Source of the DNA: a virus
Lineage: Duplodnaviria; Heunggongvirae; Uroviricota; Caudoviricetes
Length of the DNA stretch: 64,000 nucleotides
Virus record (IMG/VR): IMGVR_UViG_3300042256_000013
Span: 128,001-192,000 of that record
Direction: 5' to 3' (one strand)
Shown here: positions 957 to 48,075 of the stretch, piece by piece
How the letters are laid out: each line of letters begins with the position of its first letter
Position numbering within the stretch: the stretch's first letter is position 1
Position numbers and translations under genes: made by a program
Notes under the pieces: generated by a model
What the model saw: only the letters and a program-made list of their open reading frames with translations
Told to the model about the DNA's origin: nothing
The model's database searches: none

Positions 957-1103
957 TGCCTAACTCCGTTAGTCAAGAATTGAGTTCAGTACTCTCTATC
1001 GTTCGTACTATGAACTCAATTCAGATTTTATATGTTTAACACAATTTATACTGACGAGATTTGGGGAGGACATTTTCATCCCCCCGCAGGGGGGTGAAGT
1101 CGT

Positions 1104-1600
1104 AAAAAAAGTACACAATCGTGTACTGAATTTAATCTGACGATGATAGTCGTCGGAATCTGTCGAATTGTGAATTTCTCTGAATTTTAGATACAACTTC
1201 ATTGTACTTTTTCTGGAGAACGAAAGCGGGTTGCTCGGTTTCTCTCTATCACAGTCATATGCAACGGTCGCAGGTTTAAACATTCCTGCACTCAGTACTG
1301 AATCTATTCGACCAAATCAGTACTTGCCATTTCTGGCTCCCTTAGCGTATTGGTAAGTGACCTTATATGTCTATCTAGGAAGTGTCTCATATGCTTATCA
1401 CACTTCTTTATTGAGCCGCATTGCCGTGATTCATAGTCTTACATCGCTTTGGATTGAATGCTATTACTCTAACGGGTTTCTTTTGCTCATCGTACTGATT
1501 GAACTACTCATCTGCCATCTACATTTTCGATAGGATCAGGTGTATTCACTCGTCAAGGACTATCCTTGTCAATCAGAGTTGTATCTAAAAATATTATTGT
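1104..1600 (-). ncRNA. candidate large structured non-coding RNA (~500 nt)
   Basis: No credible ORF. Promoter at 1607-1635. Perfect 14-bp closing helix 1185-1198/1577-1590 with many nested helices, a GAAA tetraloop on the minus strand, and a hairpin plus U7 at 1104-1127. Confidence 0.6.
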
Positions 1601-1606
1601 ACCATC

Positions 1607-1635
1607 ATTATACCATATAAATTCGGTTCGATCCA
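1607..1635 (-). promoter_or_regulatory. promoter TGGATC-N17-TATAAT (variant of the TGRAAY class)
   Basis: Minus strand TGGATC gaaccgaatttatatgg TATAAT, directly downstream of a terminator. Confidence 0.65.

Positions 1636-26422: not shown

Positions 26423-28584
<2,162 letters not shown>

Positions 28585-31942: not shown

Positions 31943-31946
<4 letters not shown>
30603..31946 (-). CDS. dda: SF1B DNA helicase Dda
   Basis: GYAGTGKST, PTHKA, TIHSFL, VDECSM, GDKCQLPPV, RQ, AYTN, TAHKSQGST, YTALTR. Confidence 0.9.
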
Positions 31947-33266
<1,320 letters not shown>

Positions 33267-46569: not shown

Positions 46570-48075
46570 TTACATCCTACCATTCAAAAAGTTTCTCATA
46601 CTAGAAACTTTATCCTCAGTCTTTGATGTATTTATATTTTGAGATTCAGGAGTACTGTAATTTTGTACATCATCTGTACTGGTACTTGGTTTATGCGTAA
46701 CTGTTGTTAATTTATTCTGTAATGAACTCATAGCATTACCTGGAGCTTGTGGAGTACTGAAAACATTACTTTTGCCTATCATTACTTTTCCACTATGTTT
46801 GAAACCAGTATTAATTTCCATTTCCTGAACAGTATGAGGATGATCTAGTACTCTAAGTGAATCAATATCATAAGACATGATTAAACGCGAACCTACCGCT
46901 GAACTATTACGAGTTTTTTGGAAGTCAAATACCAGTTCACCACGATCTTTACGTGCATCAATGTAAATTACGTTATCAGCAGTATAAATCTTAGAGATAC
47001 CACCTGCAATTTGTGCTTGGGATTTAATATCTTCTCCAGATACACCACTACGGTTAAACTGACAAGCCGTGAATACAGTTATGTCCATTTTCATAGCAAG
47101 AGCACGAAGTTCTTCGGATACGAACTTATCTTTAACGAATGCATTAGACTTATCATTCGGACCACAACGATCAGATGTTAACAAATCGAGATAATCCACA
47201 CAAATATAGTCAAGCTTAATGCCAGTTTTGATTTGAAGTTCACGAATATAACTTTCAATGTCATTAACAGTGGTTACAGATTCAGGCAAACGATGAATAC
47301 GCAATTTACCATTACTGCGTTCCTCAATTTTGACCTTAGCAGCAGTCTCATCAATGTCAACTTTGACTCTATTCTGTGCAGTGTTAACCATCATACCATA
47401 GATACGAACAGCAACTAATTCTGATGCCAGTTCAAGTGTAATGTATGCACCATTAAGTCCAGCTTTACTGAAGTTCACGGCTAAGTTTTGGAGCACTACT
47501 GACTTACCACCACCGGAGGCTGCTGCGAAGATTTCTAATTCTTGCTTACCGAAACCACCAAACAGTTTATAGTCAAAAGTTTCCCAACCAGATTTGAATG
47601 TACCTTGTTGATCTGCCAATTTACGAATTACTGCTTCTGGATCTTCATAAATGTCAAGACCAATATCATTCTGTACAGTTACTAACATAGCTTCACGAAT
47701 AAGTTCTTCGATTCCACCATATCTTTTTTGGTTTACAAGTTCCATCCCTTGCTGAATTGCTTGAGCAAGAGCTTTATGACGACAAAATTCACCAATACTA
47801 TCAAGTACTGCTTGTTGATTCAAGTTAGGTACAATAGTTTCAGAATATGAAAAATCTGCATTGTGTTTAATGTCATTAAGTGTAGGGGTTACATTGTACT
47901 TAGATGAATAATCATGTACATATTGAATGCTTGAATGATATTCCTTATCGAAATAATCAGGTTTCAAAACATTCTTACAACGAACATACAAGTCCGGTGT
48001 ACTAAAAATTTGCTGTAGCAAATATAATTGATATTGAATATCGTATTTTCTAACGTCCGTGTTACTTACAATCAT
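46570..48075 (-). CDS. 41: replicative DnaB-like helicase (T4 gp41)
   Basis: SGW..FD..L.GG, AASGGGKS, YITLEL, VDYLDL, SEELR.LA, TA.Q.NR, KTRN. Confidence 0.92.
   Translation of the reverse strand: MIVSNTDVRKYDIQYQLYLLQQIFSTPDLYVRCKNVLKPDYFDKEYHSSIQYVHDYSSKYNVTPTLNDIKHNADFSYSETIVPNLNQQAVLDSIGEFCRHKALAQAIQQGMELVNQKRYGGIEELIREAMLVTVQNDIGLDIYEDPEAVIRKLADQQGTFKSGWETFDYKLFGGFGKQELEIFAAASGGGKSVVLQNLAVNFSKAGLNGAYITLELASELVAVRIYGMMVNTAQNRVKVDIDETAAKVKIEERSNGKLRIHRLPESVTTVNDIESYIRELQIKTGIKLDYICVDYLDLLTSDRCGPNDKSNAFVKDKFVSEELRALAMKMDITVFTACQFNRSGVSGEDIKSQAQIAGGISKIYTADNVIYIDARKDRGELVFDFQKTRNSSAVGSRLIMSYDIDSLRVLDHPHTVQEMEINTGFKHSGKVMIGKSNVFSTPQAPGNAMSSLQNKLTTVTHKPSTSTDDVQNYSTPESQNINTSKTEDKVSSMRNFLNGRM

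Follow-up and report, generated by a model that had tools for sequence, protein, structure and literature searches.

The element lies on the minus strand at 960-1635 of the window, by which we mean the whole 64,000-nucleotide stretch that was analyzed, positions 128001-192000 of a complete phage genome of 371,104 bp. Upstream, the intrinsic terminator of a 614-aa gene (1652-1676, minus) insulates the element and falls outside the conserved family; downstream is a 122-aa gene (within 545-956, minus). The gap between them had been said to hold no credible ORF, and this stood: an ORF at 1008-1283 is shifted or absent in orthologues and was rejected as a protein for want of conservation. The window also encodes topoisomerase II, NrdA, a DnaB-like helicase (46570-48075), the large terminase, and an RNase HI (31943-32380). 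The gap region is 92 to 96% identical to that of Xanthomonas phage XbC2 and 85 to 90% identical to those of CBB, GAP32, and fHe-Yen9-04, and by these identities the source is a Mimasvirus-like phage of the RaK2/GAP32 (GAP32/CBB-like) jumbo group. The two genome ends share a 127-bp overlap (1-127 and 370978-371104), probably an artefact from assembling a circular contig.

This is one of five diverged copies in the phage genome. The original prediction was right in seeing something here; its boundaries were wrong, and it missed the multicopy nature of the element. The four further copies, at 43, 213, 297, and 359 kb of the genome, are all on the minus strand (nhmmer, E 1e-29 to 1e-52), and a search of the genome for a sixth found none. 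CBB, BF, fHe-Yen9-04, GAP32, Munch, Hallingskeid, and EJP2 have five copies each, 121Q and A4 have four, and RaK2 has three; in every relative examined, the copies are co-oriented. The identical five slots are retained and are syntenic across genera, from which we take the duplications to be ancient. Intervals between copies in this phage are 86, 84, 83, 62, and 55 kb (CV 0.17; P = 0.002 versus random placement), a statistic that counts only once, since with syntenic slots the even spacing is a single inherited event and the P-values of relatives are not independent. Spacing is uneven in RaK2, where three copies leave a 184-kb gap, and in the Pseudomonas phage PA5oct, discussed below. Of the coding sequence, 83% shares the orientation of the element; copy 3 is directed against both of its adjacent genes. 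A divergent clade on metagenomic jumbo-phage contigs (L320:6436-7100, L294, L286, and L316) has a different 5′ domain and a different repeat; the L320 copy occupies a sixth gene slot, near an RNase H gene, with the orientation still shared. PLSDB plasmids gave chance matches only.

Nearly all copies start with a promoter of the phage class called "divergent RpoD-like." Here it spans 1607-1635 (minus), with a -35 at 1635-1630, an extended TG at 1615-1614 that is present in 69 of 75 copies, and a -10 at 1612-1607, so that transcription is predicted to start at ~1600. In CBB, this promoter class precedes DNA-synthesis genes (PMC5259590).

The case for a structured transcript rests on covariation in 76 nonredundant copies (effective number 60, mean identity 61%), scored by a G-test with APC against a tree-aware, tree-shuffled null. 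At the cutoff of E<1 there were 46 covarying pairs, and 37 of the 46 are canonical. The 5′ domain (1338-1600, minus) has a variable first hairpin, pseudoknots 1576-69/1495-1502 and 1489-85/1412-16, and helices 1475-68/1424-29, 1421-19/1367-69, and 1406-02/1379-83. The 3′ domain (1144-1337, minus) comprises hairpin 1324-14/1294-1305, whose loop pairs as 1312-07/1162-67, and a junction defined by 1288/1271, 1261/1234, and 1246-43/1222-25, with loop 1253-49 pairing to 1169-73. Within helix 1219-16/1177-80 of this domain sits an optional hairpin module of ~28 nt (1185-1210), which takes either of two places among paralogs (after 1338 or after 1216), appears twice in some of them, and is missing from others. 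At least three pseudoknots are established by covariation (1489-85/1412-16, 1312-07/1162-67, and 1253-49/1169-73); 1576-69/1495-1502, which reaches into the loop of hairpin 1506/1493, is canonical in 78 to 88% of copies and falls below the E<1 cut, and covariation of a long-range pair, 1235/1094, is marginal. Folding of the single sequence is modest (z -2.1), while the comparative evidence is strong. By eye, terminal loop 1238-1256 resembles what we take to be two adjoining T-loop motifs of the kind found in RNase P and T-box RNAs.

A real, large, ornate RNA driven by its own promoter, as the original prediction had it, is therefore borne out by covariation and by conservation of the promoter. 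The helices, promoter, and both terminator-like hairpins that we checked are in the sequence letter for letter, and relatives back helices 1569-76/1495-1502 and 1379-85/1400-06 as well as those at 1326-37, 1294-1324, and 1270-89. A 14-bp helix proposed to close the structure (1577-90/1185-98) fared less well: among the copies, just the orthologues of this one have it (12 to 16 bp), and the optional module supplies its 3′ arm. In place of helices 1256-60/1365-69 and 1266-69/1359-62, covariation gives 1421-19/1367-69, 1261/1234, and 1246-43/1222-25.

GNRA tetraloops are enriched in the 5′ part on the sense strand (33 versus 8 in shuffled sequences) and not on the antisense strand (6 versus 4). 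Confinement of the enrichment to the sense strand fixes, as far as loop statistics go, both strand and chemistry: the predicted acting molecule is the minus-strand RNA. It also has invariant single-stranded residues. At more than 350 nt, with conserved multiple stems and pseudoknots, covariation, and no conserved ORF, it has the features of the ornate-RNA class. A comparison with Rfam 15 at two thresholds, covering GOLLD, ROOL, OLE, HEARO, ARRPOF, tmRNA, RNase P, and group I/II introns, gave no family match, in line with the earlier failure to recognize a known family; the best score (E 0.64) was off target and did not reach the gathering threshold. ARAGORN found nothing in the region, and our literature searches, in which subscription journals were outside coverage, turned up no published description of the element. 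Logan contigs from four runs, examined for the 121Q copy, were uninformative, as these are contigs only, paralogs cross-map, and two of the runs are probably DNA. On the antisense strand, 35 weak promoter-like matches fall at RNA nucleotides 80 to 120, and their -35 is not conserved. The one in this copy (1499-1525, plus; 15-nt spacer) overlaps an invariant block and would yield an RNA-I-like antisense transcript of ~70 nt against the variable 5′ hairpin.

The conserved unit does not stop with the RNA. A hairpin with a U run at 1104-1127 (minus), earlier taken for the 3′ end, is present in only 34 of 73 copies, and conservation extends past it to ~960; the hairpin is optional and a possible attenuator. 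Four features are common to all copies: repeat 1, a pyrimidine tract, a hairpin of a C-run with a G-run, and repeat 2. Direct repeat 1 (7 nt; 1137-1143, minus), the 3′ arm of a small hairpin, and direct repeat 2 (1051-1057, minus) are connected by covarying pairs 1146/1059 and 1137/1051, and the repeats change jointly between clades (TCGTCAG in the main clade, CTTCAAG in RaK2, and ACGAAG in the divergent metagenomic clade). We propose repeat 2 as a putative RNA-to-DNA switch region. Between the repeats, the C6-nnn-G6 hairpin (1080-1094, minus) varies hardly at all on its G side, whereas C-to-T changes are tolerated on its C side; we propose this hairpin as a candidate site of R-loop nucleation. 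Past repeat 2 is an AT-rich spacer (1023-1050, minus; family median, 77% AT versus ~64% genome-wide), a candidate unwinding element.

Beyond this point the loops change type. A long hairpin at 977-1022 (minus), with a 12-bp outer stem, a GNNA loop, and tandem G.A steps, is perfect in XbC2, and its predicted site of folding is the displaced DNA strand. It is followed by a C-GGA-G triloop mini-hairpin of DNA type (960-972, minus), with the caveat that in this copy the GGA loop doubles as the Shine-Dalgarno sequence of the gene starting at 956; loops in the family are mostly GAA or GTA. On the sense strand of the 3′ block, C-GNA-G triloops number 53, with all four N represented, versus 1.1 expected (maximum, 3); there is 1 on the antisense strand and there are 2 within the RNA domain. 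With islands and divergent clades included, 59 of 81 copies have such a triloop on the sense strand versus 1 of 81 on the antisense strand. Of 71 3′ blocks, 32 contain GNA/GNNA hairpins with tandem G.A steps, a type absent from the RNA domain and from the other strand. The whole 371-kb genome has only eight minus-strand hairpins of this type with stems of at least 5 bp, three of them inside elements and two ~400 bp behind elements. As DNA, mini-hairpins with GNA loops have exceptional stability, which is much lower in the RNA form; they are found at the G4 origin priming site and in RSF1010 ssiA (PMC13037366). Because the triloops are strand specific and stabler in DNA than in RNA, we read the block beyond repeat 2 as a single-stranded-DNA structure. 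The strand that would fold is the nontemplate strand, the one an R-loop would displace.

Two versions of this block flank the 122-aa gene, which has no PHROG match. The second is partial (545-610, minus; C-GAA-G hairpin at 551-563; a weak match, E = 3), and its position behind the gene suggests that the gene was inserted into the block. Downstream of this copy, the genes differ in every relative, resembling a cassette-insertion hot spot, and copy 4 is followed, at a distance of 440 bp, by a similar hairpin (genome position 296346).

PA5oct, a related Pseudomonas jumbo phage for which RNA-Seq during infection is available (PMC7318152), offers a probable counterpart and, with it, the only evidence of transcription. 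According to the passages of that report drawn on here, ncRNA004 (MK797984, 246116-246734) is a 619-nt "putative lncRNA" that is weakly transcribed, at 0.08, 0.03, and 0.02% of phage reads; the same passages contain no description of its paralogs or architecture. By these figures, ncRNA004 is rarer than the average phage transcript, making up 0.22% of the genome and at most 0.08% of reads. We find the same layout, promoter led, with repeat, C/G hairpin, repeat, AT spacer, and long tandem-G.A hairpin; the transcript as annotated in that source ends past the C/G hairpin (the G-run), at the equivalent of repeat 2. Co-oriented paralogs lie at 12.9 and 76 kb of PA5oct, for at least three in all, and that at 76 kb, between a gp46-like gene and an opposite-strand baseplate gene, is in the slot of copy 3. 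Our covariance model has a single match in the 287-kb PA5oct genome, to the 13-kb paralog, in register and weak (E 0.54). HMMs gave no link between PA5oct and the element family, from which its sequence has diverged beyond HMM detection, and a bridging HMM search joined neither of them to the divergent clade; scanning viral contigs for the PA5oct motif yielded chance matches only. From synteny, architecture, and the in-register match, the PA5oct element is probably a remote homologue in position and architecture. Two other PA5oct RNAs, ncRNA001 (L184:1452-1902) and ncRNA002 (L185:1264-1499), are abundant in the cited data (1 to 5% of phage reads) and have no similarity to the family.

The whole unit is also found in about a dozen bacterial islands: complete copies are present at ffs in the chromosome of E. 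coli LR-29-1, in Citrobacter P55, and in ~10 metagenomic contigs without jumbo-phage genes. The usual order is a serine (once a tyrosine) integrase, the element, a CI-like repressor, a Ner/Cro-like regulator, and cargo; seven of the islands examined have the divergent CI/Cro switch. Phage promoter, G-run, repeats, and DNA hairpins are all retained. Annotation of the island ORFs turned up no Rep, primase, or helicase, although several ORFs have no assigned function and could hide a Rep. A 318-aa gene of the E. coli island was considered for this role and rejected, having only a subthreshold match to Lin1244_N and no phage homologue. KTSC and Hfq-like proteins, once suggested as partners of the RNA, gain nothing from these comparisons: the KTSC-domain gene of the window (27995-28528) is 27 kb from the element, the Pfam Hfq model has no match in the genome, and neither is among the annotated island genes.

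Taken together, we have a real, uncatalogued, large RNA-plus-DNA element that is best read as an RNA-primed origin. Our proposal, which we hold to have a little better than an even chance, is that each copy is a transcription-primed R-loop replication origin with a primer RNA like ColE1 RNA II. Transcription by RNA polymerase would begin at the phage-specific promoter, giving an RNA of ~550 nt that takes up the multi-pseudoknot fold evident from covariation. Where the optional terminator is present, it would be read through and may tune firing. The G-run would nucleate a persistent RNA:DNA hybrid, perhaps together with repeat 1 switching its pairing to the template strand of repeat 2, and a 3′-OH near repeat 2, left by a cut of the phage RNase HI or by the transcript end, could prime leading-strand synthesis. 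We imagine that the displaced strand, which has the folding signature for it, forms the GNA-triloop and tandem-G.A hairpins and that these load helicase and primase (the primosome). Five co-oriented origins would divide the 371-kb genome into replicons of 55 to 86 kb.

Several features argue for this reading. The switch from RNA-type to DNA-type loops is specific to strand and domain, and the G-run stays G while its partner drifts to T. Copies are co-oriented and regularly spaced, even where copy 3 runs against its neighbors. The distance from the start site to repeat 2, 550 nt here and 517 nt in the family median, is comparable to that in ColE1, in which RNA II starts 550 bp before the origin (PMC5043065). 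The promoter class is one that precedes DNA-synthesis genes, with parallels in T4, and the genome encodes both RNase HI and a DnaB-like helicase. Islands keep the unit with no Rep or primase found, and PA5oct has an analogue in the slot of copy 3 as well as a paralog of it, ncRNA004, whose transcript is scarce and extends beyond the C/G hairpin. Other observations sit less well with an origin. A fold with several pseudoknots seems excessive for a primer, T4 origins require no ornate RNA, a terminator-like hairpin precedes the G-run in nearly half of the copies, this one included, and the uneven spacing in RaK2 and PA5oct also counts against it. Skew at four-fold (codon-position) and intergenic sites showed no sawtooth, no clear strand-wide replication term, and no origin signature. 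When a k-mer model built from the 3′ block was applied to ColE1, phiX174, and G4, it did not single out their priming sites, and beyond the generic GNA mini-hairpin there was no sequence similarity to the PriA/DnaG priming sites phiX174 pas, G4 ori, and ssiA.

Two known systems come close. The ColE1/pMB1 origin, with RNA II and ssiA/n′-pas, likewise has a structured RNA of ~550 nt, a promoter upstream of a G-run, RNase H, and a downstream block of hairpin DNA on the displaced strand, in a cis element without an initiator gene (PMC5043065, PMC3167613). This likeness, from the ~550-nt transcript through the G-run to the single-stranded-DNA hairpin site, is one of layout only: HMM and CM comparisons with the ColE1 origin gave no match in sequence or structure. 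Our element differs in its several pseudoknots, its phage-specific promoter, its three to five diverged copies per chromosome, and the lack of a convincing antisense RNA I. An identical 7-mer directly before the G-run of ColE1 we treat as anecdotal. T4 uses at least five origins, of which oriF and oriG consist of a middle promoter and an unwinding element, and our phage would have in common with it a middle-type promoter, an AT-rich downstream stretch, and several origins per genome, along with a phage-encoded RNase H and helicase (PMC3016281). Here the promoter class and AT-rich spacer are present by sequence, while middle-mode timing and unwinding are putative. T4 origins, however, are ~100 bp long, have no sequence in common, and work without a folded RNA, whereas the sites described here are paralogous and combine a conserved ornate RNA with DNA hairpins. 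With no ColE1 homology, no convincing RNA I, and no folded RNA at T4 origins, the element parallels both systems and is a member of neither.

The principal alternative is a trans-acting ornate RNA, a scaffold, cage, or ribozyme in the manner of GOLLD, ROOL, or OLE, that ends at the U run. Copies would then raise dosage or diversify targets, and the 3′ DNA hairpins would be a separate recombination or cassette site. Its very high structural complexity, the invariant single-stranded residues, and the terminator in 34 of 73 copies speak for such a role, as does the fact that phages are known to have large ornate RNAs (PMC12286853); GOLLD, ROOL, and OLE resemble our RNA in size, multi-junction and pseudoknot architecture, phage association, and a function that is not known. 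Co-orientation and spacing would, however, go unexplained, as would the fixed-register G-run, the second repeat, and the DNA-type hairpins that accompany the RNA in islands and in every clade. The element also differs from those families in having no Rfam match, in its fixed link to the G-run and single-stranded-DNA hairpins, and in its apparently low abundance; the PA5oct analogue, on the published figures cited above, is rarer than the average phage transcript. We regard the trans-acting role as unlikely while leaving it an appreciable share. The original prediction had offered two identities, a free RNA in the style of ROOL/GOLLD or a structured primer RNA. Of these, the primer RNA fits better than the free RNA: the RNA is joined to the G-run and single-stranded-DNA hairpins, the copies dispersed along the genome all point the same way, and the unit stays complete in islands in which no replication genes were found.

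Other cis or selfish roles, even pooled, are similarly unlikely. The least improbable is a cis-acting DNA-handling site other than an origin, its R-loop serving as a recombination hot spot, genome anchor, or packaging/ejection checkpoint. Such a site would share all the cis features of an origin, and hypervariable genes behind the 3′ block and duplication of part of the block at 545-610 would suit it. Yet variability does not discriminate, as T4 origins themselves can be recombination hot spots (cited in PMC3016281), and the promoter class is tied to DNA-synthesis rather than late genes, so we consider this role improbable. Still more doubtful is a selfish mobile RNA element, such as an ORF-less intron or an OMEGA/MITE-like element, or, in islands, a decoy that sequesters a phage protein: being multicopy, intergenic, and common to phages and to islands with defence-like cargo would fit, but the five slots are constant across genera, and there is neither a group I/II, HEARO, or other Rfam match nor an associated ORF. 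A put-like cis antiterminator RNA that gives host RNA polymerase processivity over long co-oriented operons would account for the promoter-proximal position, the regular spacing, and the shared orientation with most coding sequence, but with an opposite-strand gene facing copy 3, islands that have no long downstream operon, and the DNA-type hairpins left unexplained, it is the least probable of all.

To our knowledge, a new class of large RNA this rich in pseudoknots seldom comes to light, and most such classes lack an assigned function. RaK2/GAP32-like jumbo phages are used in biocontrol and phage therapy, and we found no description of their replication origin in the searchable literature. 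If the primed-origin reading is correct, it supplies those origins, gives an example of a bacteriophage with regularly spaced paralogous origins, and carries priming in the style of RNA II over from small plasmids to viruses of 350 kb. If it fails, there is still an uncatalogued ornate RNA family with three to five copies across several genera. New here are the quantified switch from RNA to DNA signatures, the optional terminator, the co-changing repeats, and the link to PA5oct.

For the islands, we infer satellites that would be replicated by the machinery of a helper phage through a borrowed origin. They are like PICI-like phage satellites in their integrase, divergent CI/Cro switch, cargo, small size, and chromosomal att sites; they differ in that no primase/Rep module was found and a helper-type element sits in the core instead. 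Such satellites, if the origin reading holds, would form a group that exploits its helper by means of an RNA origin instead of a Rep protein. One can envision, as a tentative and rather unlikely extension, that the paralogous origins of RaK2/GAP32-like phages are run by a multi-pseudoknot RNA that controls, and may even catalyze, formation of the primer end and that Rep-less satellites stole this origin for helper-only replication. The cargo of the E. coli island (L179:16996-18727) consists of DUF4326, DUF488, and dual-OB genes, and its DUF4326 gene has a homologue in the phage itself (genome positions 304950-305255).
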